From positions 1 through 43,809 of the forward strand of contig DATJXF010000009.1 of NCBI GenBank assembly GCA_035500415.1: 43,809 bases of DNA. Direction: 5' to 3'. Position 1 is the stretch's first letter. Every line of letters begins with the position of its first letter. The notes under the pieces are model-generated. The model searched no databases. It was given only the letters and a program-made list of their open reading frames with translations, and was not told where the DNA came from. This stretch comes from Candidatus Acidiferrales bacterium. Lineage in GTDB: Bacteria > Eisenbacteria > RBG-16-71-46. The translations under genes were made by a program, and so were the position numbers. This document shows positions 6,111 to 35,600 of the stretch, piece by piece.

Positions 6111-6817
6111 TCGCGATGCCCGCAATCGACCTGCGCGAGGGCGCGTGCGTGCAGCTCGTGGGCGGCGCCTACGAGCGCGAACGCGTGCGGCTCCCCGATC
6201 CGGTGGCCGTCGCGCACCGCTGGCGCGACTGCGGCTTTCGCGCGCTGCACGTGGTCGATCTCGACGCCGCGACGGGCCGCGGCGGGAACGCGGCGGCCAT
6301 CGCCGCGCTGCTCTCGGCCGGCGGCGAGGTGCAGGTGGGCGGCGGCGTGCGCGACGAAGCGACCATCGCGCGCTGGCTCGACGCCGGCGCGGCGCGGGTC
6401 GTGATCGGCACGCGCGCCATCGAGGATCCCGCCTGGCTGGCGGAGGCCGCGACGCGCTTTCCCGGCCGCCTCGTCGTCGCGCTCGACGAACGCGGCGGCC
6501 AGGTGGCGACGCACGGCTGGACGCGCGCGCATGCGGAGGGCGCGGACGAGCGCGCCGCCGCGCTCGCTTCGCTGCCGCTTGCCGCCGTGCTCGTCACCGC
6601 GGTCGACCGCGAGGGCCGCCTCGCCGGCCCCGATCTCGATCTCGTCGAGCGCGTCTCGAGCCGCGTTCCGCATCCCGTTCACGCCTCGGGCGGCATCGCC
6701 AGCCTCGAGGACCTGCGCGCCGTGGGCTCGCGCGGCGCCGCCGCCGCCGTGCTCGGCATGGCGCTCTACACCGGCGCGCTCGATGCGCGCGCCGTCGCGG
6801 AGGAGTTCGGCTCATGA
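6107..6817 (+). CDS. hisA: ProFAR isomerase (1-(5-phosphoribosyl)-5-[(5-phosphoribosylamino)methylideneamino]imidazole-4-carboxamide isomerase)
   Basis: GTG at 6107 overlaps the hisH stop (GTGA), with GGAG 5 nt upstream; alternative ATG at 6116. PAIDLREGACVQL, HVVDLDAA and GGGVR motifs are present. Confidence 0.9.
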   Translation: MIAMPAIDLREGACVQLVGGAYERERVRLPDPVAVAHRWRDCGFRALHVVDLDAATGRGGNAAAIAALLSAGGEVQVGGGVRDEATIARWLDAGAARVVIGTRAIEDPAWLAEAATRFPGRLVVALDERGGQVATHGWTRAHAEGADERAAALASLPLAAVLVTAVDREGRLAGPDLDLVERVSSRVPHPVHASGGIASLEDLRAVGSRGAAAAVLGMALYTGALDARAVAEEFGS

Positions 6818-7356
6818 CCTCGATCGTGCGCGAGACGCGCGAGACCCGCGTCGAGATCCGGCTCGCGCCGGGTGCGGGCACGACGCGTTGCCGCACCGGC
6901 TTGCGCTTTCTCGATCACATGATGACGACGCTCGCCGCCACCGCGGGCCTCGAGATGGAGCTCACGGCCCGCGGCGACCTGCGCCACCACGTGATCGAGG
7001 ACGTCGCCCTCGCCACCGGCGAGGCGGTCGCGAGGCTGCTGCCCGAGCGGCCCGTGCGCTACGGCGAGCGCACGCTCGCGATGGACGACGCTCTCGTCCA
7101 GGTGGCGCTCGACCTCGGCGGACGCGCGTACTACCGCGGCCCACTGCCCGCGCCGCTCTACGACCACTGGATGCGCTCGTTCGCGACGCAGGCGCGCGCG
7201 ACGCTGCACGTGCGCGTGCTGCGCGGGCGCGACCGGCACCACGTGATCGAGGCCGCCTTCAAAGCGCTGGGTTTCGCGCTGCGCGACGCGCTCGCTTCGA
7301 GCGGCGCCGGAGCGAGCACCAAGGGCGCGGTGCGCTGGGAGGACGGCGCGTGCTGA
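6814..7356 (+). CDS. hisB: imidazoleglycerol-phosphate dehydratase (monofunctional)
   Basis: ATG at 6814 overlaps the hisA stop (ATGA). RETRETRVEIRL, GLRFLDHMM, GDLRHHVIED and RDRHHVIEAAFKALG motifs are present. 180 aa, so no fused histidinol-phosphatase domain. Confidence 0.9.
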   Translation: MTSIVRETRETRVEIRLAPGAGTTRCRTGLRFLDHMMTTLAATAGLEMELTARGDLRHHVIEDVALATGEAVARLLPERPVRYGERTLAMDDALVQVALDLGGRAYYRGPLPAPLYDHWMRSFATQARATLHVRVLRGRDRHHVIEAAFKALGFALRDALASSGAGASTKGAVRWEDGAC

Positions 7357-8150
7357 GGCGCCGCGTGATCGCCTGCCTCGACGTGCGCGGCGAGCGCGTC
7401 GTGAAGGGCGTGGGCTTCGGGGACCTGCGCGACGTCGGCGATCCCGTCGAGCTGGCGGTCCGCCACGAGGCCGAGGGCGCCGACGAGATCGCGTTCCTCG
7501 ACATCTCCGCGACGCTCGAGGGCCGCGCGACGTTCCTCGAGGTCGTGCGGCGCACCGCCGAGCGCCTGTTCGTCCCGCTCACCGTGGGCGGCGGCATCCG
7601 CTCGGCCGAGGATGGCGCGCGCGCGCTGCGCGCCGGGGCCGACAAGGTGAGCCTCAACTCCGCGGCCGTGGCGCGTCCCGAGACGCTCGACGAGCTGGCC
7701 GGGCGTTTCGGCTCGCAATGCGTCGTGGCGAGCATCGACGCGCGGCTCGAGCACGGCGCCTGGCGCGTGTGGACGCACGGCGGCTCCCGCCCGAGCGGGC
7801 TCGATGCGATCGAGTGGGCTCGCGTGTGCGAGTGGCACGGCGCGGGCGAGGTGCTGCTCACCAGCATCGACCGCGACGGCACACGCTCGGGCTACGACCT
7901 CGAGCTGACGCGCGCCGCGGTGGACGCCGTACGCGTGCCGGTCGTGGCCTCGGGCGGCGCCGGATCGGCGGCGCACGTCGTGGAGGTGCTCGCCCGCGCC
8001 GGCGCGGACGCGGCCCTGCTGGCCGGCACGCTCCACGCGGGCGCGCTCGGGCTCGGCGAGATCAAGCAGGCCATGGCGCAAGCGGGACTCCCCGTGCGCC
8101 GCGCTCCCGGCACGCCCGCGCCCGACGCGGAGGCGCCATGTTCGAACTGA
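7350..8150 (+). CDS. hisF: imidazole glycerol phosphate synthase, cyclase subunit
   Basis: GTG at 7350 overlaps the hisB end by 7 nt. VLRRRVIACLDVRGERVVKGVGF, PLTVGGGIRS and SIDRDGT motifs are present. Confidence 0.95.
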   Translation: MLRRRVIACLDVRGERVVKGVGFGDLRDVGDPVELAVRHEAEGADEIAFLDISATLEGRATFLEVVRRTAERLFVPLTVGGGIRSAEDGARALRAGADKVSLNSAAVARPETLDELAGRFGSQCVVASIDARLEHGAWRVWTHGGSRPSGLDAIEWARVCEWHGAGEVLLTSIDRDGTRSGYDLELTRAAVDAVRVPVVASGGAGSAAHVVEVLARAGADAALLAGTLHAGALGLGEIKQAMAQAGLPVRRAPGTPAPDAEAPCSN

Positions 8151-8737
8151 CCCGGTTGCCGGAGGGAACGAGCGTGCCCGTGATCGCTCAGGACGCGCGC
8201 AGCGGCGTCGTGCTCATGCTGGCGTGGGCCGACCGCGAGGCCATCGAGCGCACGCTCGCGACCGGCGAGATGCACTATCGCTCGCGCACGCGCGGGCTGT
8301 GGCACAAGGGGGCGACGAGCGGTCACGTGCAGCGCGTCGTCTCGCTCGGCTGGGATTGCGACGCGGACGCAATCCTCGCGCGCGTCATCGCGGCGGGCCC
8401 CGCGTGCCACCAGGGCACGACGTCCTGCTTCCGCGACGAGGCGCTCGATGCGGACGCGCTCGCGGCGCTCGATCGCGTGATCGCGGCGCGGGCGGCGGGC
8501 GGGGATTCGCCGGATGCGAGCTACACGCGCCGGCTGCTCGGCGATCGCAATCTTCGGCTCAAGAAGCTGGGCGAGGAAGCAGGCGAGCTCGCGGTGGCGT
8601 GCGCCGATGGCGAGCGGTCGCGCGCCGTCTCGGAGGCCGCCGACCTCGTCTACCACGCGCTCGTCGCGCTGCGCGCGCTGGGCGCGGGACTCGACGACGT
8701 CCGGGCCGAGCTCGCGCAACGCGCGCGGCCGCGGTGA
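8138..8737 (+). CDS. hisIE: bifunctional phosphoribosyl-AMP cyclohydrolase / phosphoribosyl-ATP diphosphatase
   Basis: ATG at 8138 overlaps the hisF end by 13 nt. The HisI part (HYRSRTRGLWHKGATSGH, CDADAIL, GPACHQG) is followed by the HisE part (SYTRRLL, KKLGEEAGE, EAADLVYH). Confidence 0.9.
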   Translation: MFELTRLPEGTSVPVIAQDARSGVVLMLAWADREAIERTLATGEMHYRSRTRGLWHKGATSGHVQRVVSLGWDCDADAILARVIAAGPACHQGTTSCFRDEALDADALAALDRVIAARAAGGDSPDASYTRRLLGDRNLRLKKLGEEAGELAVACADGERSRAVSEAADLVYHALVALRALGAGLDDVRAELAQRARPR

Positions 8738-8788
8738 CGCGCCGGCACCGCAACGCCCGCCGCTCGCGCCCGGGCGCCGCGGCGGGGG

Positions 8789-8806
8789 GCGTGGCCTAGG
8801 CCACGC
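8789..8806. repeat. perfect 18-nt palindrome GCGTGGCCTAGGCCACGC at the hisIE/mqnE convergent junction (possible bidirectional terminator hairpin)
   Basis: The sequence is self-complementary and spans the mqnE TAG stop (8796..8798). There is no U-tract on either side. Confidence 0.35.
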
Positions 8807-9920
8807 TCGCCGCGGCGGGCTCGTCGCGCCGCGCGTAGGTGCGCACGACGCGGTAGAGCGCGTCGCGCTGTACCGGCGTCTTTCCCGCTTCGCGGATCAG
8901 GTGGACCATGCCGGCCTCGGCGAGCCCCACGGGACTGCGCGCGAGCGCGGCGTGCGCGATCTTCTCGTGACCGATCGTGCCGTCCATGTCGGAAGCGCCG
9001 AAGTTGATCGCGGCCGCGGCGGTGTCCTGCCCGAGCATCACCCAGTAGCTCTTCACGTGCGGCACGTTGTCGAACACCAGCCGCGAGATCGCCACGGTCT
9101 TCAGGTCCGTGATCGCGGACGCCTGGCGGCGCACGAGCCCGGTCACGCCGGGCTGGAACGCGAGCGGGATGAACGCGAAGAAGCCCGGCGCGCGGCGCTC
9201 CAGCTCGCGCAGCTCGATCACGTGCTGCACGCGCTCGGCGGGCGTCTCGATGTGGCCGTAGAGCAGCGTCGCGTTGCTCGGGATGCCGAGCCCGTGCGCG
9301 ACCTCGTGGATCTCGAGCCAGCGCTTCGCACCGATCTTCTGGTGGAAGAGCTCGCGCCGCACGCGCTCGCTGAACACCTCGGCGCCGCCGCCGGGCAGCG
9401 CGTCCAGGCCCGCGGCCTTGAGCTCGGTCAGCACCCAGTCGGCGGGCTTCTTCGTGAGCCGGCAGAAGAAGTCGATCTCGACCGCGGTGTAGGCCTTGAC
9501 GCTCAGATCGGGCTTCTTCTCCTTCACCCAGCGGATGATCTGGACGTAGTCGTCGAACCGCCACTTGTTGTGCAGCCCTCCGACGATGTGGATCTCGGTG
9601 ATCTCGGGATCGACGTGCGCGAGGATCTCCTCGCGCGTCATGGTGTACGCGCCGGGATCGTTCGGCTTCTTCGCGTAGTCGCAGAACTTGCACGCGAGCA
9701 CGCAGACGTTGGTGGGATTGAGCTGGCGGTTGACCGTGAAGTAGACGCGGTCGCCGTGGCGGTCGCGCGCCACCGCGTCGGCGAGGCGGCCGAGCTCGAG
9801 GACGGGCGCATCGAACAGCCGCACGCCTTCCTCCTGCGAGAGCGATTCGCCGGCGAGCAGGCGGGAGCGGGCGGCCTCGACCAGCGGGTCGCGCAAGCGG
9901 AGTTCGGAAACGTGGCTCAC
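8796..9920 (-). CDS. mqnE: radical SAM futalosine-pathway enzyme, most like aminofutalosine synthase MqnE (MqnC not excluded)
   Basis: The real start is probably the GTG at 9920 (VSHVSELRL...), 8 nt after GAGGA. It has a CxxxCxxC cluster (NVCVLACKFCDY), GGAEVFSERVR, LLYGHIETP, FDNVPHVKSYWVMLG and SDMDGTIGHEKIAHAA. The upstream part of ORF 8796..10583 is Arg/Ala-rich shadow sequence. Confidence 0.8.
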   Translation of the reverse strand: MSHVSELRLRDPLVEAARSRLLAGESLSQEEGVRLFDAPVLELGRLADAVARDRHGDRVYFTVNRQLNPTNVCVLACKFCDYAKKPNDPGAYTMTREEILAHVDPEITEIHIVGGLHNKWRFDDYVQIIRWVKEKKPDLSVKAYTAVEIDFFCRLTKKPADWVLTELKAAGLDALPGGGAEVFSERVRRELFHQKIGAKRWLEIHEVAHGLGIPSNATLLYGHIETPAERVQHVIELRELERRAPGFFAFIPLAFQPGVTGLVRRQASAITDLKTVAISRLVFDNVPHVKSYWVMLGQDTAAAAINFGASDMDGTIGHEKIAHAALARSPVGLAEAGMVHLIREAGKTPVQRDALYRVVRTYARRDEPAAASVA

Positions 9921-10131
9921 GATGGGAGTCCTCGAAATCGTGCGGATGCGCGCGGCGGCGGCGCGAGAATAGCAACGGCCCGGTCGGGCGTCATGTCGTC
10001 GACCGCTCGCGAACCGGCGTCCGCCGCTCGTGCGCCGCCGTTCGCCGAACTCCCCGCGACCGCGCGCGGCGCGGCGTGCACGATGGGTCCGAGTCGCTTC
10101 GCTCCATGCCCATTTCGAGAGGAGACGCCCC

Positions 10132-11175
10132 GTGGCACCCGCCGACCTCGCGCCCGAACCGTTCGATCCCGCGACCGCGTCCGAGTCCACGTTCGTGACC
10201 CTGCATGCCTTCACGTCCCGCCTGCGCGCGGAGTTCATGCCCGACGACCCGCCGACGCCGCTCGCCGAGGCGATCGCGGTCTGGCGCGCCAGCGGGGAGC
10301 TGGGACACGTCGAGACCTGGCTGCTTCGCGACGGCGACGCGATCGTGGCGCGCGGCCAGGTCGGCTGGGCGCGCTCGGGCCCGAACCCGCACATCGCGAC
10401 GGTGCAGCTCGACGTGGACGCGCCCCTGCGGCGGCGCGGCCTCGGGGCCGCGCTGCTCGCGCCGATCGCCCGCACGATGCGTGCGGCCGAACGCACGTCG
10501 TTCGTCGCGACCACGCTCGGGAGCGCGCCCGGCGGCGGCGCGTGGCTCGAACGCATGGGTGCGACCCGCGGGCTCGAGACCACCGCGACGCAGTTGCGGC
10601 TGGACGCGCTCGATCGCGACCTCCTGGCGGCGTGGATCGCACGCGCCGATCGCGATGCGTTCGAGCTCGGCTACTGGGACGGCCCATACGCCGAGGCCGA
10701 CCTGGACGCGATCGCCGCGCTCCACGAGGTGATGGGCACGCAGCCGATGGGCGCGCTCGCGGTCGCGCACGCCCGCCCCACGCCGGCCGAGCTCCGTCAG
10801 GACGAAGCCGCGATGGTGCCGCGCGGCACCCGGCGCTGGACCGCATGGGTGCGCGAGCGATCGAGCGGGCGGTTCGCGGGATTCACCGAGCTCACGTGGC
10901 GGCCGAGCGCTCCCCACGTGCTGAACCAGGGCAGCACGGGCGTGTTCCCGGAGTTCCGCGGGCGGGGCCTCGGGGCGTGGCTCAAGGCCGCACTGCTCGA
11001 TCGCGTGCTGCGCGAGCGACCCGAGGCGCGTTGCGTGCGCACGACCAACGCCGACGTCAACGCGGCCATGCTCCGCATCAACCGCGCGCTCGGCTTCGCG
11101 CCGTACATGGCGCGCACGGTGTGGCAGGCCGATCTCGCGGTCCTCGAGGCCTGGCTCGCCGGGCGCGCGTCGTGA
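10132..11175 (+). CDS. GNAT family N-acetyltransferase (apparently two tandem GNAT-like halves)
   Basis: GTG at 10132 follows GAGAGGAGA. It carries two acetyl-CoA-type motifs, RRRGLGAALL and FRGRGLGAWLKAALL, and ends NAAMLRINRALGF. Substrate unknown. Confidence 0.65.
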   Translation: MAPADLAPEPFDPATASESTFVTLHAFTSRLRAEFMPDDPPTPLAEAIAVWRASGELGHVETWLLRDGDAIVARGQVGWARSGPNPHIATVQLDVDAPLRRRGLGAALLAPIARTMRAAERTSFVATTLGSAPGGGAWLERMGATRGLETTATQLRLDALDRDLLAAWIARADRDAFELGYWDGPYAEADLDAIAALHEVMGTQPMGALAVAHARPTPAELRQDEAAMVPRGTRRWTAWVRERSSGRFAGFTELTWRPSAPHVLNQGSTGVFPEFRGRGLGAWLKAALLDRVLRERPEARCVRTTNADVNAAMLRINRALGFAPYMARTVWQADLAVLEAWLAGRAS

Positions 11176-24997: not shown

Positions 24998-25331
24998 ACG
25001 CGACGCCGATCGATCTGCGCGCTCACCTCCCGAACCCGACCTCCCTGCGCGCGTCACGCGTCGGAGAGTGAAGGCGGCGGGTGAGCTTCAGGCGATCGGC
25101 CCCCGATAGCGACCCCCTCCGCATCGCCAGCCGACCTTCACCTCCTCCGGCGCGATCGAGGCCTTCCGGCCTCGTCGAACGGCTATCGCAAGTCGGCTGC
25201 CAAGCGCGCACGGCGGGAGAAATGGGCGCAACCTGTTGTGGGGTCACGATCCTCCAGGCAATGGGCGCACGCGGCGGTGTCCTCTGCCCGACGCGGCTGA
25301 CGCGCCGCCGTCGGCGCGAGGACGCCGGCCC

Positions 25332-25365
25332 TTGACGAGGTGCACGCGTGTGCAGTAACGTGCTG
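25332..25365 (+). promoter_or_regulatory. candidate lexA promoter (TTGACG-N18-TAACGT) overlapped by three phased GTGCAC-like hexamers (candidate LexA operator)
   Basis: -35 at 25332..25337 and -10 at 25356..25361. The hexamers are GTGCAC (25340..25345), GTGCAG (25350..25355) and GTGCTG (25360..25365), spaced 10 bp apart. The core TGCAC-gcgt-GTGCA is palindromic. Confidence 0.55.
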
Positions 25366-25414
25366 CGCGTGCCGGGTCCCTTGCGGGATCCACCTCCAGC
25401 GGACGGAGACCTTC

Positions 25415-26008
25415 ATGCTGAATGAGCGCGCCAAAGAGATTCACGCTTACATCCAGCGCTTTCGCCGCGAACGCGGATCCTCGCCGACCATTCGCGAGAT
25501 CGGCGAGCACTTCCGGATCTCGTCGACGAATGGCGTCCGGTACTACCTGAACCTGCTCGAGAAGGCGGGGTACATCCGCCGCAATCGGAAGATCTCGCGC
25601 GGCATCGGGCCCATGGAGTCGGCGCGGCCGATGGGCATCCCGGTGCTCGGCCGCGTCGCGGCCGGCCAGCCGATCCTCGCCGAGGAGAACTTAAGCGGCA
25701 CGCTCGATCTCGCCGAGATGTTCGGACAGAGCAACGAGCTGTTCGCGCTGCGCGTGCGCGGCGACAGCATGGTCGACGCCGGCATCCTCGAAGGCGACTA
25801 CGTCATCGTGCGTCGCCAGGAGACGGCGCGGCCGGGCGAGATCGTCGTCGCCTTGATCGAGGACGAGGCCACCGTCAAGCGCTACCAGCCGCGCCGCAAC
25901 CACGTCGAGCTCGTCGCGGAGAATCCCAGGTACAAGCCGATCGTGGTCGACCCGGATTCCAACTTCCGCGTGCTGGGCACGGTGCGGGGAGTTCTGCGCA
26001 CCGTTTGA
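25415..26008 (+). CDS. lexA: LexA repressor (S24 peptidase)
   Basis: ATG at 25415 follows GGAG. An N-terminal wHTH is followed by the Ala-Gly cleavage site (VAAGQP), catalytic Ser (RGDSM) and Lys (TVKRY). 197 aa. Confidence 0.95.
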   Translation: MLNERAKEIHAYIQRFRRERGSSPTIREIGEHFRISSTNGVRYYLNLLEKAGYIRRNRKISRGIGPMESARPMGIPVLGRVAAGQPILAEENLSGTLDLAEMFGQSNELFALRVRGDSMVDAGILEGDYVIVRRQETARPGEIVVALIEDEATVKRYQPRRNHVELVAENPRYKPIVVDPDSNFRVLGTVRGVLRTV

Positions 26009-26030
26009 TGGCCGCGGTTCATCACAAATG

Positions 26031-26055
26031 ACGGGAGCCCAAGCTCCCGTTTTTC
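26031..26055 (+). terminator. intrinsic terminator downstream of lexA
   Basis: 8-bp stem: acgggagc (26031..26038), loop ccaa, gctcccgt (26043..26050), followed by tttt. Confidence 0.8.
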
Positions 26056-26066
26056 ACCCCCGCGAA

Positions 26067-26082
26067 GTGCACATCCGTTCAC
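26067..26082 (+). promoter_or_regulatory. second copy of the GTGCAC-N4-GTKCAS motif (candidate LexA operator) upstream of the HUH gene
   Basis: GTGCAC atcc GTTCAC has the same hexamer spacing as upstream of lexA and ends 23 nt before the GTG start at 26106. Confidence 0.5.
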
Positions 26083-26105
26083 CGATCCCCGCAGGAGGAA
26101 GTACC

Positions 26106-26582
26106 GTGGAACTCGATCTGGCTCCCCAGGTGAAGCAGGCACTGGAAAAGGATTGGGAGCCGCTGTATCGCAGCCAGCTGCACTACCTGGTGACCTGGAA
26201 CACGCGGGGCAGGCGGCCAGTGCTGAAGGAGAAGCACATCGAAGCGCTGCACGGGCTGATCCGCCAGACGTGCGAGGAGCGCGACTTCGAGCTCGTCGAG
26301 GTGGTCGCCGGACAGGATCACGTGCACGTCCTCTTCGGGCTGCGGCCGGCGCAGAGCGTCGCGAGCGCGGTGCGCGAGCTCAAGGGTCGCACGAGCATGA
26401 CGTTGATGGGACAGCACCCTGAGCTGCGCGTCTGGCTGCGCGGCAACCTGCTCTGGGACGAGCGCTACACGGTCGAGACCGTGAGCCCGCTCCGCGTCGA
26501 CCGCATCCGCGACCGGCTTTCGAGCGTGCACCGCACGCTCTTCGGCTGCGCGGACACCGAGCCACTGGCCGAAGCGAGCTGA
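26106..26582 (+). CDS. IS200/IS605-type Y1 (HUH) transposase-like protein, apparently lacking the catalytic tyrosine; solo, probably domesticated or decayed
   Basis: GTG at 26106 lies 7 nt after AGGAGGA. LHYLVTWNTRGRRP, the HUH motif in GQDHVHVLF, KGRTS and LWDERYTVETV match the IS200 TnpA layout. The region aligned to the catalytic-Tyr helix reads RIRDRLSS, and no Tyr occurs after TVETV. No tnpB is present. Confidence 0.75.
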   Translation: MELDLAPQVKQALEKDWEPLYRSQLHYLVTWNTRGRRPVLKEKHIEALHGLIRQTCEERDFELVEVVAGQDHVHVLFGLRPAQSVASAVRELKGRTSMTLMGQHPELRVWLRGNLLWDERYTVETVSPLRVDRIRDRLSSVHRTLFGCADTEPLAEAS

Positions 26583-26597
26583 TCCCGGCGGCCTTCC

Positions 26598-26657
26598 GGA
26601 CTGGCTGAGGTGGTGAGCTCCGCGCCCACACACCTTGCGATCACCCCAGCCAGCTCC
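26598..26657. repeat. imperfect inverted repeat (about 15 bp paired, 24-nt loop) downstream of the HUH gene
   Basis: ggactggctgaggtggtga (26598..26616) pairs with tcaccccagccagctcc (26641..26657). It is flanked by similar direct repeats, ccggcggccttccgg (26585..) and ccgggcggcctcctgg (26656..). It lies at the convergent junction with ribA. Confidence 0.5.
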
Positions 26658-26736
26658 GGGCGGCCTCCTGGCCGAAGGCTCGCCCAAGCGCCCAGGCGAG
26701 CGGGTGAGACTCGTCCGAGGCGCCAGGCCCGGCTCT

Positions 26737-27498
26737 TCAGCCGGCGGCGCGGTTCGCTCGGGGCTCCGGGGGGACCTCGGGCGTGCTGCTAATGTCCGCA
26801 GCGCCGTCCGGGCCCGGAATAACCTCGCGTGCGATTTCGGCGTTGGACGGCGCGGCCGGGGCGGGCTCCAGGCCGAGCCAGTGGCCGGCGCGGCTTTGCT
26901 TGGTCAGCAAGTAGCTCGCGTTGAAGCGCGTGGGTGGCGTGATGACCGGGATGCGTCCCGCGATCGTGACGCCGTATCGGCGCAGGCCCTCGAGCTTGCG
27001 CGGATTGTTGGTCATGAGTCGCACGCTGCGAACGCCGAGCGCGCGCAGCATCTCGGCCCCGACGCGATAGTCGCGCTCGTCGTCGCCGAAGCCGAGCGCG
27101 TGATTCGCATCGACCGTGTCGTAGCCGCGGTCCTGGAGCGCGTAGGCCCGGATCTTGTTCGCGAGCCCGATTCCGCGACCTTCCTGCCGCAGGTAAAGGA
27201 GCACACCGACCGGCTCGGCAGCGAGCGCACGCAGTGAGGCCTGCAGCTGCTCGCGGCAATCGCAGCGGAGCGAACCCAGCACGTCGCCGGTCAGGCACTC
27301 CGAATGGATGCGAACCGGAACCCGGGCCGCGCGGCGGACCGGACCGCGCACCAGCGCGAGGTGCTCGTTGCCGTTCTCGTCGGGGGTGAAACCGATGGCA
27401 CGGAACGTCCCGCTCGTCGTTGGCAGTTCGGCCACGGATAGCATGCGAAGCGGTTCGGTGATGCCTGCAGTTGCGGCAGCTGGGGTGCGAATCTTCAT
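26737..27498 (-). CDS. ribA: GTP cyclohydrolase II
   Basis: ATG at 27498 lies 7 nt after GGAGG. RIHSECLTGDVLGSLRCDC, YLRQEGRGIGL, DTVDANHALGF, DERDY and MTNNPRK motifs are present. It has a ~45-aa Pro/Ala-rich C-terminal tail. Confidence 0.9.
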   Translation of the reverse strand: MKIRTPAAATAGITEPLRMLSVAELPTTSGTFRAIGFTPDENGNEHLALVRGPVRRAARVPVRIHSECLTGDVLGSLRCDCREQLQASLRALAAEPVGVLLYLRQEGRGIGLANKIRAYALQDRGYDTVDANHALGFGDDERDYRVGAEMLRALGVRSVRLMTNNPRKLEGLRRYGVTIAGRIPVITPPTRFNASYLLTKQSRAGHWLGLEPAPAAPSNAEIAREVIPGPDGAADISSTPEVPPEPRANRAAG

Positions 27499-27676
27499 GC
27501 GAACGCCTCCGATGCGGGTGCAGCGGGACCCCGGGTTCAGATGCTCGGGGCCCTCCCTGCGTCGCTGAGATTCGAGCGGACGGCCGTCAGGGAATTGCGC
27601 AGCGACTGCCGGGCGGCCCGCGCGCGCGGGGCGCGGCCCGTGGCCTGGGCGGGCTCGCGCAGCGTTTTCGAGCAGG

Positions 27677-28603
27677 CTAGCCGCGTTCGGTCGCGGCCTG
27701 CGCCGCCTCCAGCCCGCCGCGAGAGGCGAGCAGCGCCGCCGCGAGCACCAGGCCAGCGCCCAACCACTGGACCGCGCCAAGTCCCTCACCGAGGAAGAGC
27801 GCGGCAGCGAGGATGGCGACGAGCGGCTCCGCGGTCGCGATCACCCCAGCTTCCGCCGAGCTCATGTGCTGAAGCCCGGCGTAGAAGAGCCGAAATGGCA
27901 CGAGCGTGGAGAAGAGCCCGAGCGCGACGAACGCGCCCCAGAGCGAAGGCGAGTAGCCCGCCTCGATGATTCGCCGCGGTGGCGTCACGATGGACCAGAA
28001 GAGCGCCGCCACCGCGAACGAGTAGACGAGCACGGTCTCGGGGGCGTAGCGCGCGAGGCCGCGCTTCGAATACACGATATAGAAGGCGAATGAAGCTGCG
28101 CAGAGGAATCCGACGGCCCAATCGAGCGGTCGCGCGTGGAGAGCGTGCGCGTCGACGCCGCTCACCAGGCAGACCGTTCCGGCGAGCGCGCCGAGTACGG
28201 CGAGGATGGTGGTCGCGCTCACGCGCCGCCCGCGCAGGAGGTCGACGGCGACGATGAGCGAGGGCGCGAGGTACTGGAGCAGGATCGCGAGGCCGACGCC
28301 CAGGTGGGCGATGGCGTAGTAGTAGCCGCCCTGAACCGCAGCCACGCCAAAGATCCCCAACGCCGCAAAATACCCGAGATCGCGACGGTCGATCCGTAGC
28401 AGATGCGGCGCGCGGATGCGCAGCACGAGGAGCATGGTCATTGTCGAGACGAGCAGGCGAATCTCGACGACACTGAGCGGCGGTACGTGGTGATCGCGAA
28501 AGATGAAGCGCGCCAGCGTGGCGCTCGTCCCCCAGAAGAGCGTTGCAGTGAAAACGAGCCAGCGACTGGACGCGCGGCGATCGGTCCCAGCGGCCGCGCT
28601 CAC
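27677..28603 (-). CDS. EamA/DMT family transporter
   Basis: GTG at 28603. It has 10 predicted TM segments in two EamA-like halves. Confidence 0.8.
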   Translation of the reverse strand: MSAAAGTDRRASSRWLVFTATLFWGTSATLARFIFRDHHVPPLSVVEIRLLVSTMTMLLVLRIRAPHLLRIDRRDLGYFAALGIFGVAAVQGGYYYAIAHLGVGLAILLQYLAPSLIVAVDLLRGRRVSATTILAVLGALAGTVCLVSGVDAHALHARPLDWAVGFLCAASFAFYIVYSKRGLARYAPETVLVYSFAVAALFWSIVTPPRRIIEAGYSPSLWGAFVALGLFSTLVPFRLFYAGLQHMSSAEAGVIATAEPLVAILAAALFLGEGLGAVQWLGAGLVLAAALLASRGGLEAAQAATERG

Positions 28604-28707
28604 TTCGCGACCTTCAAGCGGGCGAGAGGTACGGCGCGTCGGGCTCGCGGCATCTCACGTCGTGAATCAGGCCTTAGCGCTCATGGACAGTCTGTTGCGA
28701 GGACTAA

Positions 28708-29124
28708 TCAGCGCTTGATCGCTTCGCGGATTCGTGGATCGCCGACCATTTCGACAGATCCACCGCCCGCTTCGAGCATCGTGCAGCGACCGGTGAAATG
28801 AACGCCCTGCTCCATGCCCACGCTGGTCGCCGAGACGTCGCCCTCGACGCGCGCGCCGGACTTCATCTCGATCGAGCCGAGCGCGCGCACGTTGCCAATG
28901 ACGCGACCTTCGATCACCGCCTCGCGCACTTCGATGTCGGCGCGCATCATGCCGTGTTCGCCGATCTCGAGGCGCTCGCAGTTCAGGATGTCGCCGTCGA
29001 ACTCGCCCTCGATCCTGAGCGTGCCGGTCACCATCAACGTGCCGCGAAAGCTCGAGCTGACGCCAATCACGGTATTGGGTGGGGTCGGCGGCTCATCCAC
29101 GTTTCGGCTTCGAAATTTCATCAT
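28708..29124 (-). CDS. bactofilin (polymer-forming cytoskeletal protein, DUF583)
   Basis: ATG at 29124 or 29121 follows GGAGG. It shows the beta-helical repeat pattern GTLxxxGxLRIEGEFDGDI...IGEHGMMRADIEVREAVIEGRVIGNV...KSGARVEGDV. It lies 44 nt downstream of parB. Confidence 0.85.
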   Translation of the reverse strand: MMKFRSRNVDEPPTPPNTVIGVSSSFRGTLMVTGTLRIEGEFDGDILNCERLEIGEHGMMRADIEVREAVIEGRVIGNVRALGSIEMKSGARVEGDVSATSVGMEQGVHFTGRCTMLEAGGGSVEMVGDPRIREAIKR

Positions 29125-29168
29125 GGCGCCTCCAATTCATAATGAGAGCTCATCGCGAGAAGACGTGG

Positions 29169-30041
29169 CTAGAGAACGCCCCAGGCTTCGAGCAAGCGCT
29201 CCAGATCCTCCTGGCCGTAGAACTCGAACGTTACCGAGCCGCCCTTGCTGCCGGGCTTGATCTCGACTCGGGTGCTGAATCGCTGCTGAAGCTTGGTCTC
29301 CCACTCCTCGAGGCCGCCGAGGCGGGCCGGCCGCGGCCGCGAGTGTGCGCGACGCTGGCGGCGCCGAACGAACGCCTCGGTGCGGCGCACCGAGAAGCCT
29401 TTGCCAGAGATGTAGCGGGCAGCGGCGAGGACTTCCCCAGGACTTTCGAGCCCGAGCAGGGCCCTGGCGTGGCCAGCGGACAGTGTTCCACGTGAAACCA
29501 TGTCCATCACCTCGGGCGGCAGCGCGAGCAACCGAAGCGAGTTCGTGATCGACGTCCTGTGCTTGCCGAGCCGCTCGGAAACCTGATCGTGTGTCAGCCC
29601 CACGCGCCCGATCAGTGCTTGATAGGCCTTGGCCTCGTCGATGGCGTTCAGGTCCTCGCGCTGTATGTTCTCAACGAGCGCGAGCTCAAGCATCTCGCGG
29701 TCGTCGAACTGCCGGACGATCGCCGGTATGCGCGTGAGCCCGGCGAGATGAGCGGCCCGCAACCGCCGCTCGCCGGCCACGAGCTCAAAGCCATCGGAGG
29801 TGCCGCGCCGCACGATAACCGGCTGAAGCACGCCGGTCGCGCGGATCGAGTCCGCCAGCTCCCGCAGCGTCTCGTCGTCGAAGCGCGTGCGCGGCTGGTG
29901 CGGGTTGGGGCCGATCTCCGAGATCTCGAGCTCTCCGACGCCCGCGCCGTCGGCGGCGGTCGCGCGCCCATCGGCGATTCCGGTTGCGGTCGAGCTGGAG
30001 ATGAGGGCTTCGAGCCCTCGTCCGAGCGCTTTCCTACTCAT
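29169..30041 (-). CDS. parB: chromosome partitioning protein ParB/Spo0J
   Basis: MSRKALGRGLEALI, NPHQPRTRFD, GVLQPVIVRR, ELVAGERRLRAA and HTH blocks are present. Its start overlaps the parA end by 8 nt. Confidence 0.95.
   Translation of the reverse strand: MSRKALGRGLEALISSSTATGIADGRATAADGAGVGELEISEIGPNPHQPRTRFDDETLRELADSIRATGVLQPVIVRRGTSDGFELVAGERRLRAAHLAGLTRIPAIVRQFDDREMLELALVENIQREDLNAIDEAKAYQALIGRVGLTHDQVSERLGKHRTSITNSLRLLALPPEVMDMVSRGTLSAGHARALLGLESPGEVLAAARYISGKGFSVRRTEAFVRRRQRRAHSRPRPARLGGLEEWETKLQQRFSTRVEIKPGSKGGSVTFEFYGQEDLERLLEAWGVL
29484..29499. other. parS site inside parB (TGTTCCACGTGAAACC)
   Basis: 15/16 match to the TGTTNCACGTGAAACA consensus. Confidence 0.8.
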
Positions 30042-30795
30042 GGTCGATTACCTCCCGTGCGAGCTCGCGATAGCTCTCGGCGCCGCTGCTGTGCGGGTCG
30101 TAGAGCACGATGGGCTTGCCGAACGATGGGGCTTCGCTCAGGCGGACATTCCTTGGAATCACCGTCTTGTAGACACGATCGCTGAAGAACTTGCGCGCCT
30201 CGTTGGCCACCTGCTGCGAGAGATTGAGGCGCGCGTCGAACATGGTGAGCAAGACGCCCTCGATCCGGAGCGCGGGGTTCAGGTGGTCCTGGACGAGTCG
30301 GATCGCCCCGATCAGCTGCGTCAGCCCCTCGAGCGCGAGGTATTCGCACTGGAGCGGGATAAGGACGGAGTCCGAGGCGGTGAGCGCGTTGATGGTGAGC
30401 AGCCCCAGCGATGGCGGGCTGTCCACGAGGATGTAGTCGTACTCGGCGCTGATCTTCGCGAGTGACGTCTTGAGGCGTGTCTCGCGAGCCATCATGCCGA
30501 CGAGCTCCACCTCGGCACCCGAAAGACGCTGGCCCGCCGGCAAGAGATCCAGCGTCGCGAGGTCGGTGGGCTTGATCGCGTCGCGGATCTCGGCGTCGCC
30601 GATGAGCACTTCGTAGATCGTCTGCCTCTGATCGTTGCCGTTGACGCCAAGCCCGCTCGTTGCGTTGCCTTGCGGGTCGATATCGACGATCAGGACGCGC
30701 TTGCTCTCCTGGGCGACGCAGGCCCCGAGGTTGATCGCCGTGGTGGTCTTGCCGACGCCGCCCTTCTGGCTGGCAATCGAAATGATGCGTCCCAT
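30034..30795 (-). CDS. parA: chromosome partitioning ATPase ParA/Soj
   Basis: ATG at 30795 gives the canonical N-terminus MGRIISIASQKGGVGKTTT (deviant Walker A). An upstream GTG at 30891 would add 32 poorly conserved residues. Confidence 0.93.
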   Translation of the reverse strand: MGRIISIASQKGGVGKTTTAINLGACVAQESKRVLIVDIDPQGNATSGLGVNGNDQRQTIYEVLIGDAEIRDAIKPTDLATLDLLPAGQRLSGAEVELVGMMARETRLKTSLAKISAEYDYILVDSPPSLGLLTINALTASDSVLIPLQCEYLALEGLTQLIGAIRLVQDHLNPALRIEGVLLTMFDARLNLSQQVANEARKFFSDRVYKTVIPRNVRLSEAPSFGKPIVLYDPHSSGAESYRELAREVIDHE

Positions 30796-30998
30796 TCCCT
30801 TGGTCGCTCCGGCTGGGGCCGTGTTCTGCCTGAGATTGTCGCGCGGTGGCGTGCGGCACTCTCGGGCCGAACTTGGGGAGGTTTGCTGCACGCCGTGCGA
30901 AGGCTCGTGCAGTGCGGCGAGCCGACTTCCTGTCCAGGTCGCCGCGGCGCTCGGGTCCCGCGAAACTAGCAGCCCCTCGCGTCAGCGCTCAAGCGCAA

Positions 30999-31014
30999 TG
31001 TTCCACGTGGAACA
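30999..31014. other. parS site (perfect palindrome TGTTCCACGTGGAACA) between rsmG and parA
   Basis: This 16-nt perfect palindrome matches the parS consensus at 15 of the 15 specified positions and lies about 200 nt upstream of parA. Confidence 0.8.
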
Positions 31015-31037
31015 AGCGCAATGCCGCGCTCATCGAT

Positions 31038-31907
31038 TCATCGCAATCGAAATGTCGCAAACGTGTTCGGTCCATTGTCGAACGTCGTCGTCGACTCGTG
31101 AGCCCAGCGCGATTGCCATCCGCTGCCGTCGCGCGCCATCTCCTCGCCGACACCGCTGCCCTTCCAGAGGAACGCGCGCCCACCGGGCTTGAGCAGCTTC
31201 TCCGCCAGCTCGAGCGTCGGCCCAAGCAACATCGTCGCCCGCGACGTGAATGCATCCAGTCTGGTGTCGCGCAGCTCGCCATCGACAAGGACCTCGAGCC
31301 GGCCCAAGCGCACTTCGACCCCGGTCAAACCAAGCTCCATGATGGCCTTGCGCATGAACAGCGTCTTGTTCCGCCGCGACTCGACGAGCAGCCAGCGCTT
31401 GCCGACGCCCGCGATGGCCAGCGGAATCGCCGGCAGGCCGGCGCCGCTCCCCAGGTCCAGGACGGATTCGACGCCCGCATCCATGAGCTCGCGAGCCGGT
31501 TGCAGCGATTCGGCGAGGTGCCGCTCGACCAGCCGCGGCTCGTCGTTGCGCGAGATCAGGTTGGAGACGCCGCGGTTCCACTCGAGCAGGAGCGTGGCGT
31601 AGCGCTCGAGTCTGGCGAGTGCAATCTCGCGGTCGACGCCGCATCGCTCGAGCAGCGGTCGCAGTCTGGCCCATGGCTGGCGCGCCAGCAGCTTCGCCGG
31701 ATCCAGAGCGCGGGGCTCGCGTTTCGCTCTCCCGCCCGGTGCGGCAAAGCGGCGGTCGTCGTCGCGCGGGGCGCCGCGGCGCGGCGCTCCTTCGCGCGGC
31801 GCAGAGCTGCGCCTCCTCGTGGTCACCTCGGATCGCGCCGAGCTCGCGCGCGTCGTAACGGATCGGCGGCGGTCAGCGCCCGTGCGGGTGTTCGGTTGGC
31901 GAGCCAT
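31038..31907 (-). CDS. rsmG: 16S rRNA (guanine527-N7)-methyltransferase RsmG with Arg-rich N-terminal extension
   Basis: The core has LERYATLLLEWNRGVSNLIS, the SAM motif VLDLGSGAGLPAIPLAI and RATMLL. No ATG/GTG/TTG occurs near the canonical start, so the ATG at 31907 (or the GTG at 31832, which begins VTTRRRSS) adds at least 45 basic residues. Confidence 0.8.
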   Translation of the reverse strand: MARQPNTRTGADRRRSVTTRASSARSEVTTRRRSSAPREGAPRRGAPRDDDRRFAAPGGRAKREPRALDPAKLLARQPWARLRPLLERCGVDREIALARLERYATLLLEWNRGVSNLISRNDEPRLVERHLAESLQPARELMDAGVESVLDLGSGAGLPAIPLAIAGVGKRWLLVESRRNKTLFMRKAIMELGLTGVEVRLGRLEVLVDGELRDTRLDAFTSRATMLLGPTLELAEKLLKPGGRAFLWKGSGVGEEMARDGSGWQSRWAHESTTTFDNGPNTFATFRLR

Positions 31908-32083
31908 GGCAACCACTCTAGCATCGCGGGCGCAGGATCTCCGCGCAGCGCTCGACCCGGGCCAGGCGCCGATCCGATTCGCGAACCGCGCCGGGCGAAC
32001 GCGCAGCGCCTCAGTCTCGCCCGGCACGGTCGGCTGAGGCCCGGCACCAGCGCGATTCACGCGCCGGGCGAGCGCGCAGCGCC

Positions 32084-34207
32084 TCAGCCTCGCCCGGCCC
32101 CGCGCGCCACACCCACCCTCGCCGCGTGCCGCTTCGCGTGGACGAGCAGCACCGCCACGTCCGCGGGAGAGACGCCCGCGATCCGCGCCGCCTGCCCGAC
32201 GCTCGCGGGTCGCCAGCGTGCGAGCTTCTCGCGCGCCTCACTCGAGAGCCCCCGCAGCGGTTCGGCCCAGAGCGACTCCTCGAGCGGCAGGGCTTCGAGC
32301 GCCGCGGCCCCGCGCGCCGTGCGTGCCTGGCGCTCGAGGTAGCCGCGATACTTGAGCCGCACCTCCAACGCTTCGCGATCGTGGGGCGCGAGCTCGCTGA
32401 TGACGCCCAGCGCCGCCAGATCGTCGAACGTGACCTCGGGCCGCGCGAGGTAGTCCGCCGCCCTGACCGCCCGCGCCGTGGCCGGCGCAGCCTCATCGCG
32501 CGCGGGCTCGGGGCGCGCCCCGCCATCGCGGGCGCTTCCGGCCGTCGCGGACCCTGCGCTCGCCCCCGCTTCACTCGCGTCACCATTTCTCGAAGCCGCG
32601 ACCGTCACCGTCACGCGCGCCAGCCGGCGGGCCTCGGCCTCGATCGCGGCGTAGCGCGCGCGCACGCGTTCGCGCTGTTCGTCGTTCAGCAGCCCGAGCG
32701 CATGGCCGATCTCCGCCAGCCGCTCGTCGGCGTTGTCCGCACGCAGCAGCAGCCGATGCTCGGCCGCCGAGGTGAACATGCGATACGGCTCGCGGTGCTC
32801 GCGCGTCACGAGGTCGTCGATCAGCACGCCGACGTACGCCTGATCGCGGCGCAGGACGAGCGGCTCGCGGGCCGTGAGCGCGAGCGCCGCATTGACGCCC
32901 GCGACGAATCCCTGCGCCGCCGCTTCCTCGTAGCCCGACGTGCCGCAGATCTGCCCCGCGAGGTAGAGGCCGCGGATCGCCCTCGCCTCGAGCGTCGGCC
33001 GCAGCTGGTGCGGCAGCACGAAGTCGTACTCGACCGCATAACCGGGGCGGATCATCTCGGCGCGCTCGAGCCCGGGGATCGTGCGCACGAACTCGAGCTG
33101 CACGTCCTCGGGCATGCTCGTCGAGACGCCGTTCACGTAGATCTCCTCGACGTCGCGGCCCTCGGGCTCGAGGAAGAGATGGTGCGACTCGCGCTCGGGG
33201 AACTTGACGACCTTGTCCTCGAGCGACGGGCAGTAGCGCGGTCCCGTGCCGCGGATCGCGCCGGAGTAGAGCGGCGACTGCGCCAGGTTCTCCCGGATCA
33301 CGCGGTGCGTCGCCGCGTTCGTGTGTGTGCTCCAGCACAGCACCTGCTCGAGGTCCAGACGCTCGGTCCAGTGCGAGAACGGCCGCGGCGGCTCGTCGCC
33401 CGGAGCGGGCTCGAGCGCCTCGAACGCGATGCTGTCCCGCCGCAGCCGCGGCGGCGTTCCGGTCTTGAGCCGGCCGCGCTCGAAGCCCAGCTCGCCCAGG
33501 CATTCGCTGAGCGCCCGCGCCGCGTGCTCGCCGATCCGCCCGCCGGGAATCTGCCGCGGCCCGATGTGAATCAGGCCGTTCAGGAACGTGCCCGGCGTGA
33601 TGACGAGCGCGCGGCACTCGAGCACGCGTCCGTCGGCGAGCTCGACACCGGTCACGCGGCCGTGCTCGCGCCGCACGTGGTTCGCGATGCCCTCGAGGAT
33701 CTCGAGCCCGGCGACGCCGTCCAGCAGCGCGAGCATCTCGAGCGCGTAGCGCGGCTTGTCGCACTGCGCGCGCGGCGACCACACCGCGGGCCCGCGGCCG
33801 CGGTTGAGCATCTTGAACTGGATGCCGGCGCGGTCGGTGACGCGCGCCATGAGCCCGCCGAGCGCGTCGATCTCGCGCACCATGTGGCCCTTCGCGATGC
33901 CGCCGATCGCGGGATTGCACGACATGCGCGCGATGTCGCCGCGTTGAACCGTGAGGAGCGCGGTCGAGAGTCCCATGCGCGCGCAGGCGTGAGCGGCCTC
34001 GCAGCCCGCGTGACCGCCGCCCACGACGATCACGTCCCGGCGCGTTTCGCGCGGCACGGGCGCGCAGGCCGCGCGGACCGGGTGCTCGACGCCGGCCGCA
34101 CGCCAGGCGCCCGCCGCGCCCCCGACATCGGGCGCGCGCTCCGCGCCCGGCGCGCCGGCGCGGTCCGAATTGGGCCGAGCGCCCGCGGCTGAGGCCCCGA
34201 TGCGCAT
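32084..34207 (-). CDS. mnmG: tRNA uridine 5-carboxymethylaminomethyl modification enzyme MnmG (GidA)
   Basis: [61 protein letters not shown] and the C-terminal [14 protein letters not shown] block are present. The start is uncertain: ATG at 34207 or GTG at 34057 ([15 protein letters not shown]), which fits the canonical length better. Confidence 0.9.
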
Positions 34208-34232
34208 CGCCTCGTTCGCGCTCACGTCCGCC

Positions 34233-35600
34233 TCACTTGCCCACGCAGAAGCGCGCAAAGATGCGCTCGAGCAGATCGTCGCTCACGCGGACGCCGAGCA
34301 GCTCTTCGAGCGCCCCGAGCGCTTCGCGCAGCTCGAGTGCGACGATCTCGCCCGGCGCGCCGTGGTCCGCCTCGCGCGCCGCGCGTTCGAGCGCCGCGCA
34401 CGCGCGGGCGAGCGTCGCCGACTGCCGCTCGCTTGCGAGCACCTCGCCCGCCTCGAACCCCGCGACGCGGGCGAGCGCCGTCGCGACGTCCGCGACGCCC
34501 TCGCCGGTGAGCGCACTCACCCCGACCGCCTCGGCGCGCTCGGCGCCGAGCCCCTCGAGCCGGGACGCAGCTCCGGCGTGCGCGCCGCGATCGCGCTGGT
34601 TGAGCGCGAGCACGACGCGCCGCCCGGCGAGCGCGGCCATCTCGTCGCGCTCGGCCGCCGACGCCGCCGTGGTGCCGTCCACGACCCAGAGCACGACGTG
34701 ACTCGCTTCCAGCGCACGCCGCGCGCGCGCAACCCCCTCGGCCTCGATCGGATCGCCCGCCACGCGCAGGCCGGCCGTATCGGAGAGCGTGAAGAGCGCA
34801 CCCTCGAGCTCGATCGTCGCGCTCACGCGGTCCCGCGTCGTGCCCGGAACCGGCGTGACGATCGCACGCTCCTCGCCCACGAGCCGGTTGAAGAGGGACG
34901 ACTTGCCCGCGTTGGGGCGGCCGACGATCGCCACCTGCACACCCTCGCGCAGCGCGCGGGCCCAGGCCGCGCCGGCGAGATGCGAGGCGAGCGCCGCGCG
35001 CTCGGCGACGATGCGCGCGATCACCCCGGCCGGCACCTCGATGCCGCCCACGTCCTCGGCGAAGTCGACGCGCGCCTCGACCTCGGCGAGGAGATCGGCC
35101 AGCGCCTCGAGCCGCGCGCGCAACTCGGCCGAGAGCTCGCCCGCGAGGCGCGAGAGCGCGGCGCGGTGCATGCGATCGCTGCGCGCGTGAATCAGCTCCG
35201 CGACCGCCTCGGCCTGCACGAGATCGAGCCGGCCGTTCAGGAAGGCGCGCAGCGTGAACTCACCCGGCTCCGCCGCGCGCGCGCCCACCGCGAGCAGCCG
35301 CTCGAGCGTGCGGCGCGCGGGCAGCGCGCCCCCGTGGCACGAGATCTCGACGACGTCCTCGCGCGTGTAGGAGGCCGGCGCGCGAAAGAGCGCGGCGACC
35401 ACCTCGTCGATCCGTGCCTCGCCTCCGAGCCAGCCGTGGTGGAGCGTGTTCCCGCCGGCCTGGCGCAACGGGGCTCGCCCGCGGAAGACCTCGTCGGCGA
35501 GCGCGATCGCGCGCGGGCCGCTCACGCGCACGACCGCGAGGCCCGCCTCCCCGGCGGGCGTCGCGATCGCGGCGATGGTGTCGTCGAGTGCGAACGGCAC
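34233..35600 (-). CDS. mnmE: tRNA modification GTPase MnmE (TrmE)
   Basis: GTG at 35600 follows [13 protein letters not shown], the G-domain ([20 protein letters not shown]) and the C-terminal CVGK are present. Confidence 0.95.

Follow-up and report, generated by a model that had tools for sequence, protein, structure and literature searches.

A tyrosine-less TnpA homologue beside lexA in Eisenbacteria and its probable control by LexA

What is a gene with the fold of an IS200/IS605 transposase doing directly behind lexA, preceded by what looks like the same operator? The question is raised by contig DATJXF010000009.1 of assembly GCA_035500415.1, named Candidatus Acidiferrales bacterium and placed among the Eisenbacteria in GTDB. 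Its positions 1 to 43,809 (G+C content, 73%) were analysed as one stretch, referred to here as the window. An earlier note on this DNA had proposed that the gene downstream of lexA, here called the HUH gene, belongs to the SOS regulon and encodes a domesticated protein that binds or nicks single-stranded DNA (ssDNA) or hairpins. We favour the reading that the gene is a domesticated, catalytically disabled homologue of the transposase TnpA, repressed by LexA and non-cleaving, which has become a fixed partner of lexA in Eisenbacteria and related lineages. We put the probability of this reading at roughly 0.7.

The HUH protein follows the IS200/IS605 TnpA layout, as had been noticed by eye. It matches PF01797 (Y1_Tnp) with 83 bits (cut-off 23), over profile positions 3–115 of 121 only, and NF033573 with 82 bits (cut-off 55). 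A Foldseek search with its AlphaFold model retrieved the TnpA structures of ISDra2 (2xm3), IS608 and a Sulfolobus IS200 at E values of about 1e-8 (best, 1.5e-8), and gave a weak structural match to the RAYT structure 4er8. The metal-binding HUH motif is present, and the catalytic tyrosine is missing. In a phmmer alignment with ISDra2 TnpA, the nucleophile Y132 is paired with R137 and the metal ligand Q136 with V141, and no tyrosine lies C-terminal of the TVETV block in the HUH protein. The earlier claim that the HUH motif was kept while the tyrosine was lost therefore stands, as the alignments place an arginine, and never a tyrosine, in the catalytic column.

This loss is a property of the whole family. 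A search of 5.8 billion proteins returned 895 relatives, and residues were counted in the best 120 of these 895, which are 157–158 amino acids (aa) long and 71–88% identical. All 120 carry arginine in the tyrosine column. Among family members from metagenomes, arginine or lysine occupies this column in 68 of 69 sequences, the exception being a proline in one frameshift-like sequence. By comparison, five canonical outgroup TnpAs all have DHVH and Y...Q, with the tyrosine in the column in 5/5. R143 is found in 117/120 close homologues and is variable in the metagenome set of clade A, the clade to which the window belongs. Sporadic tyrosines occur in the variable C-terminal linker of 13/120 close homologues, and none that follows TVETV is conserved. 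Y21, Y27 and Y121 were considered as replacement nucleophiles and rejected, being shared structural residues: ISDra2 TnpA has tyrosines aligned to Y21 and Y27, and canonical TnpAs too have Y121 without exception. With no tyrosine there is no covalent 5'-phosphotyrosine intermediate, and the HUH protein would thus be expected neither to transpose nor to rejoin DNA.

Could the gene nevertheless be an ordinary IS200-type insertion sequence (IS), or the decaying relic of one, lying near lexA by chance? The NF033573 score above its cut-off points that way, as do public records, which name these proteins transposases. The comparative data point elsewhere. When 185,579 genomes, each representing one species, were scanned, 57 loci (L001–L057) emerged, nearly all labelled Candidatus Eisenbacteria, and the gene is essentially present in one copy per genome. 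In 57/57 genome loci the gene immediately upstream, on the same strand, is lexA, which is also upstream in all 62 metagenome loci having at least 400 nucleotides (nt) of upstream sequence, in line with the expectation that orthologues would adjoin lexA in relatives. The gene order lexA-HUH-(ribA)-eamA-bactofilin-parB-parA is retained in most loci. Neither the window nor the loci contain tnpB or REP-like repeats, and the window has no real dispersed repeats. The hairpin between lexA and the HUH gene was rejected as an IS end or REP, since it occurs once per locus and no second hairpin is found 3' of the HUH gene. Against eleven orthologues, the ratio of nonsynonymous to synonymous substitution rates (dN/dS) is 0.16–0.32 for the HUH gene, well below 1, and 0.16–0.52 for lexA. 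Measured against the window copies, LexA and the HUH protein show correlated identities (r = 0.70), both with medians of about 70%. Copy number, fixed position, dN/dS, conserved length and the uniform arginine thus reject an ordinary IS as well as a pseudogene, as the earlier note had supposed for the IS. This explanation is refuted by the comparative data and is given practically no weight; judged from sequence, the gene is a domesticated chromosomal TnpA homologue.

A few of these loci deserve separate mention. The long-read metagenome-assembled genome (MAG) MFD05942.bin.1.32 is the one genome with three lexA-HUH loci (L034, L040 and L056), two of them with shortened or frameshifted matches; true paralogues, pseudogenes, a bin of mixed origin and indel errors of the long reads are all possible causes. 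L032, L052 and L057 are labelled Saccharimonadaceae, Gemmatimonadales and Methylomirabilota, respectively, yet show the same lexA-HUH-eamA-bactofilin-parB synteny, which suggests mis-binned or mislabelled contigs.

The family extends beyond clade A to two sister clades, which were reached via an exhaustive profile search, a second protein search, contig look-ups and a metagenome scan. The profile search ranks the tight family first, then one divergent cluster at 38% identity, and then ordinary TnpAs. Clade A keeps DHVH, has arginine in the tyrosine column (lysine in a subclade), and is followed by a convergent eamA or ribA. Clade B reads D(R/K)VH, so that the first histidine is lost, has arginine in the tyrosine column, and is followed by DUF6504 and DNA polymerase IV. 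Clade C mostly reads SQVR, with both histidines lost, has arginine or lysine in the tyrosine column, and is followed by dinB about 140 nt further on and then by DUF72. In clades B and C alike, the HUH gene follows lexA, carries the box described below, and lies upstream of dinB. The stop codon of the clade B HUH gene overlaps the start of an 83-aa DUF6504 gene, and the clade B polymerase scores 307 bits against NF002677 (cut-off 256). Because both sister clades have lost histidines of the HUH motif, yet keep fold, lexA linkage and box, the function of the family (hereafter HUH*) is most likely non-catalytic, and the activity common to its members would most likely be binding rather than cutting. 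The same loss weakens the nicking option of the earlier proposal; its domestication part and its conserved box stand.

The link to the SOS response begins with lexA itself. The protein scores 186 bits against TIGR00498 (cut-off 111) and matches LexA_DNA_bind (PF01726) and Peptidase_S24 (PF00717). The motifs VAAG/QP, GDSM and TVKRY are readable in the translation, in agreement with the earlier impression of a functional gene. By its winged-helix domain, S24 peptidase domain, Ala-Gly site and Ser/Lys dyad, the product is, as far as sequence can tell, a LexA repressor. All orthologous lexA promoters read TTGAC-N3/4-TGCAC-N4-GTGCA-N-TAnnnT, and wherever a genome locus covers the lexA promoter, a perfect TGCAC-N4-GTGCA palindrome fills the -35/-10 spacer at the same position. 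Over 57 distinct orthologous promoter sequences, TTGAC holds 1.6–2.0 bits, and the TA...T positions of the -10 hexamer are invariant at 2.0 bits. Of the promoter TTGACG-N18-TAACGT proposed earlier, these positions are supported by conservation, while the promoter scan makes no call. A palindrome in this position would be the usual signature of LexA autoregulation.

A closely similar box precedes the HUH gene, as the earlier note had seen, at a spacing of 24 nt rather than the 23 it gave. The pattern TGCACNNNNGTKCA matches the window at 25341–25354 and 26068–26081 only, with 0.06 matches expected and 0/100 shuffles reaching that count, and allowing one mismatch adds no site in the 43.8 kb. The by-eye count that had found TGCAC-N4-GT(G/T)CA nowhere else was thus accurate. 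The 57 genome loci and the window together make up about 0.45 Mb, in which exact matches are confined to the two orthologous positions. Box 2 is present in 57/57 genome loci (54 exact, three with one mismatch), with the consensus TGCACA(T/A)N(T/C)GTTCA, and usually ends 23–26 nt ahead of the HUH start codon. All metagenome loci with enough upstream sequence, from the three clades, carry a box-like site matching 8–10 of the 10 specified positions. In clade B, too, the lexA promoters show the -35/box/-10 layout of clade A, and in clades B and C the box precedes a gene group that contains dinB, a classical SOS gene. Repression of the HUH gene by LexA is thereby rendered very likely.

The sequence TGCAC-N4-GTGCA matches the LexA box of Fibrobacter succinogenes, TGCNC-N4-GTGCA, reportedly determined by Mazon and co-workers in 2004. 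Both boxes of the window agree with this consensus at all positions or at all but one, and Eisenbacteria and Fibrobacter belong to the same FCB superphylum. The GTTCA half-site of box 2, unlike the Fibrobacter consensus, is typical of Gram-positive LexA boxes. A third hexamer that had been read upstream of lexA, GTGCTG (25360–25365), did not hold up; it is not conserved and overlaps the last two bases of the -10 hexamer TAACGT. A full second box stands at this position in 2/55 orthologous lexA promoters. In these two, L014 (3227–3250) and L030 (3209–3232), it overlaps the first box by four bases (TGCAC-N4-GTGCAC-N4-GGTGCA), which is the layout that the earlier note read into the window.

The region between the two genes is organized alike in every locus: terminator hairpin, T-run, TGCACA(T/A)N(T/C)GTTCA, CCCCGC and ribosome-binding site. 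The terminator reported earlier behind lexA is well supported, with an RNA fold of -15.8 kcal/mol (z = -5.25) and a stem preserved via compensatory changes in orthologues (GGGAGT/ACTCCC, GGGAGA/TCTCCC, CGGAGGC/GCCTCCG). The terminator scan gave no plus-strand call at 26031..26055, where its longest stem takes in one T. The near-perfect Shine-Dalgarno sequence described for the HUH gene is likewise present, as AGGAGG at 26093–26098, ahead of the GTG at 26106. In clade A the CCCCGC element separates box 2 from the ribosome-binding site (window 26086–26092); it also follows the box in the majority of clade B and C loci (L058–L099), despite divergence of the sequence around it. By eye, TTTTCA in the T-tract and A(T/A)NNGT inside the box, at a spacing of 16–17 nt, form a promoter candidate that is possible in clades A and C and does not fit clade B.

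Taken as a mechanism, the favoured reading runs as follows. LexA dimers would bind TGCAC-N4-GTGCA in the lexA promoter, resulting in autoregulation, and would also bind TGCAC-N4-GTTCA just 5' of the HUH gene. The lexA terminator would shield the HUH gene from basal lexA transcription. With LexA bound at box 2, the gene would hence stay silent until DNA damage, when RecA-stimulated self-cleavage of LexA would relieve repression. We postulate that the HUH protein is a structure-specific binder of single-stranded or hairpin DNA, the ancestral TnpA substrate, and that it may contribute to damage tolerance as a scaffold or accessory factor. Such a role would fit the sister clades, where the gene is followed directly by DUF6504 and DNA polymerase IV.

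Several observations weigh against this reading, some of them on the side of regulation. No canonical sigma-70 promoter for the HUH gene was called by the promoter scan or seen in the orthologue alignment. This leaves two options, namely that the box covers a weak promoter overlapping the T-tract, or that it stops read-through from lexA. Furthermore, recA, uvrA and dinB are not among the genes of the window or of the clade A loci, and no further box is found there. The palindrome might belong to a different regulator or be bound by the HUH protein, with the HUH gene outside SOS control. The consistent GTTCA of box 2, as opposed to the GTGCA of box 1, would suit such an arrangement, as would the missing promoter call. 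It is nevertheless very unlikely, as a perfect palindrome lies between -35 and -10 of lexA in every orthologue and the box precedes the dinB gene group in the sister clades. Moreover, TnpA-type proteins recognise ssDNA hairpins, not duplex palindromes.

On the side of function, the DNA-binding role is proposed by extrapolation from the ancestral fold, and the AlphaFold model is of moderate confidence, with a predicted local distance difference test (pLDDT) score of 73. The link to dinB is seen in the sister clades only, not in the clade of the window. In addition, every clade A sequence examined has D71, H72 and H74, and H142 is invariant in 120/120 close homologues and found in 38/39 metagenome members of clade A, as if metal binding, and possibly chemistry, were still under selection there. 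These residues, kept though the tyrosine is lost, support the principal rival explanation, in which the clade A protein is an SOS-induced, metal-dependent hydrolytic nuclease or nickase for ssDNA that uses water as nucleophile. The retained HUH site would bind the metal, possibly with H142 as third ligand, and R137 might hold the phosphate. Clades B and C, however, have replaced one or both histidines by arginine, lysine or glutamine and do not conserve H142, so the catalytic site cannot be a family-wide requirement. To our knowledge, HUH enzymes are not known to be active once the tyrosine is missing. A retained hydrolytic activity in clade A is on balance unlikely, and the explanations by a checkpoint or a decoy, taken up below, are weaker.

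The linkage to lexA is absolute over three clades while the downstream partners vary. This could suggest that the HUH protein regulates the SOS circuit or a checkpoint, by modulating LexA or the RecA filament or by inhibiting division. Checkpoint genes do occur next to lexA, such as sulA after lexA in Pseudomonas and yneA beside lexA in Bacillus, and the analogy lends this explanation some appeal. We consider it quite unlikely: the HUH protein has no similarity to a known division inhibitor or RecA modulator, its fold is a nucleic-acid-binding one, and in clade B its gene shares a stop overlap with DUF6504 directly upstream of a translesion polymerase.

A further explanation starts from the closest solved relative, ISDra2 TnpA, and from the fact that irradiation triggers ISDra2 transposition. 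The HUH protein might be a dominant-negative decoy, binding the end hairpins of IS200/IS605 elements or poisoning TnpA dimers, and thus curbing single-strand transposition at times when damage has made ssDNA plentiful. The IS608 TnpA dimer is trans-configured (PMC3597680), and in a dimer of this kind a tyrosine-less subunit would be inactive. A decoy is highly improbable, since about 57–88% identity across the phylum and the loss of the HUH motif in sister clades suit a stable host target rather than fast-evolving IS ends. Canonical IS200/IS605 copies were not seen in the window or the loci.

A more far-reaching version of the favoured reading is possible but tentative. HUH* might be an ancient, obligatory partner of LexA within a lineage of the FCB superphylum, and the ssDNA- or hairpin-recognising subunit of a module HUH*-DUF6504-Pol IV, analogous to ImuA-ImuB-DnaE2, of which Eisenbacteria would retain only the LexA-linked recognition subunit. 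The groups imuA-imuB-dnaE2, umuDC and yolD-uvrX are LexA-controlled and pair inactive homologues or accessories with a translesion polymerase. Like these SOS mutagenesis cassettes, clades B and C show lexA followed by HUH*-(DUF6504)-dinB. Unlike them, the dead component derives from a transposase and not from RecA or a Y-family polymerase, and the clade of the window has no adjacent polymerase gene.

How does the family compare with known relatives of TnpA? With the TnpAs of IS200/IS605 elements (ISDra2, IS608, IS200), the HUH protein shares fold, size, the DHVH motif, and the KG.S and W..Y blocks. In contrast to these, it has arginine for tyrosine and has lost the Y...Q motif. The gene itself lacks the subterminal hairpins at both ends, the tnpB and the multiple copies of such elements, and is vertically inherited beside lexA. 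The TnpA_Y1 subclass 1.2, defined by Y...Q..HH, comprises low-copy proteins without IS features, mostly from Cyanobacteria and Bacteroidetes (Quentin et al. 2018, PMC6006769). The nearest tyrosine-bearing relatives in a representative search carry this Y...Q..HH signature, and several of these subclass 1.2-like relatives resemble the HUH family in having an N-terminal stretch ahead of the first strand. Subclass 1.2, however, keeps the tyrosine, and no lexA link is described for it (PMC6006769). The same survey required both the HUH and the Y motif and set tyrosine-less sequences aside as probably non-functional (PMC6006769), so that a family such as HUH* would have been filtered out.

RAYTs (TnpA_REP) are domesticated chromosomal genes, low in copy number, that descend from the same transposase superfamily. 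They keep the HUH motif and the tyrosine and are flanked by REP hairpins, whereas the gene described here has neither tyrosine nor REP-like repeats. With 44 bits against the RAYT model NF047646 (cut-off 80), the HUH protein does not qualify as a RAYT. LexA control of an HUH-superfamily transposase gene has a precedent in ISCR elements, where the gene is directly LexA-repressed and damage-induced, as shown in E. coli (PMC13393415). The ISCR Rcr proteins are active transposases of the mobile IS91/ISCR group; the protein described here is a disabled Y1-type homologue that is chromosomally fixed. The HUH family is therefore most likely, on its sequence features, a branch of the domesticated Y1 HUH transposases that is linked to LexA and non-catalytic. 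A literature search on Eisenbacteria LexA, on DUF6504 and on inactive HUH transposases with LexA found nothing relevant, and the earlier note's impression that the pairing of lexA with such a gene had not been described agrees with this.

These comparisons have a practical side. NF033573 passes its cut-off on the tyrosine-less proteins (66–82 bits, clade C included) and the public records speak of IS200/IS605 transposases, so that the current annotation is misleading; such labels on HUH* genes inflate the mobile-element counts of these genomes. The domesticated Y1 transposases known so far, RAYTs and related subclasses, all keep the catalytic tyrosine. The HUH* family has lost it, is conserved as tightly as LexA, and always lies beside lexA behind a LexA-type box. 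If the favoured reading is true, the SOS response would gain a protein of a new kind, the family would be a clean natural case of a transposase fold re-used without its chemistry, and an in-silico LexA box would be available for an uncultivated phylum.

Table 1. Positions of lexA, the HUH gene and their associated elements in the window.
Feature	Position	Strand	Remarks
-35 hexamer TTGACG of the lexA promoter	25332..25337	+	Conserved in orthologues
Putative LexA box 1, TGCACGCGTGTGCA	25341..25354	.	Perfect palindrome in the spacer of the lexA promoter
-10 hexamer TAACGT of the lexA promoter	25356..25361	+	18 nt after the -35 hexamer
lexA 5' leader element, GTGCC(G/A)GG then GGTCC..GGACC hairpin	25369..25393	+	From the alignment of upstream regions
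lexA	25415–26008	+	197 aa; AG cleavage site and Ser/Lys dyad intact
Intrinsic terminator 3' of lexA	26031..26055	+	Stem 26031–26050, ACGGGAGC/GCTCCCGT; loop CCAA; T-run to 26055
Putative LexA box 2, TGCACATCCGTTCA	26068..26081	.	24 nt 5' of the HUH start codon
TCCCCGC element, then Shine-Dalgarno AGGAGG	26086..26098	+	Conserved in orthologues
HUH gene (tyrosine-less TnpA-fold protein)	26106..26582	+	GTG start; 158 aa
D71-H72-V73-H74 of the HUH protein	26316–26327	+	Metal-binding HUH motif
R137 of the HUH protein	26514–26516	+	At the catalytic tyrosine position; H142-R143 follow

The 5' leader of lexA contains a conserved element of its own. Its hairpin is kept in the orthologous leaders of L001–L057 with compensatory variants, for example GGTTCG..CGAACC, and the element has no Rfam match. 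A search for known RNA families in 25000–26900 gave just two chance-level matches, both below the gathering score, and a tRNA search of the window found none. Downstream of the HUH gene, the minus strand of the window carries GTP cyclohydrolase II, an EamA transporter, bactofilin, parB, parA and gidA/mnmG (26737–34258), a set that flanks the replication origin in many bacteria. The genes upstream of lexA on this same strand are ubiD, a probable ubiX and ubiA.

In clade B, lexA is followed by HUH*, DUF6504, DNA polymerase IV, DUF72, two further genes and a helicase (L059, L061, L063 and L066). The two genes encode proteins of about 375–430 aa without a family match, and the helicase is of the HRQ1 type (DEAD/Helicase_C/WHD_HRQ1/MZB), as seen for example in L061 at 5001–10465. 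This gene group may be an undescribed damage-tolerance cassette, and HUH*-DUF6504-dinB-DUF72-helicase, as yet uncharacterised, is a candidate for a role in translesion synthesis. The clades also differ at the C-terminus of the HUH protein. In the window it ends in A-E-A-S (26571–26579), and A-x-A-S is nearly invariant in clade A (118–119/120); clade B has a conserved cysteine-containing tail (CS.. or RC) in its place. Either tail could be a degradation tag or a partner-binding tail.

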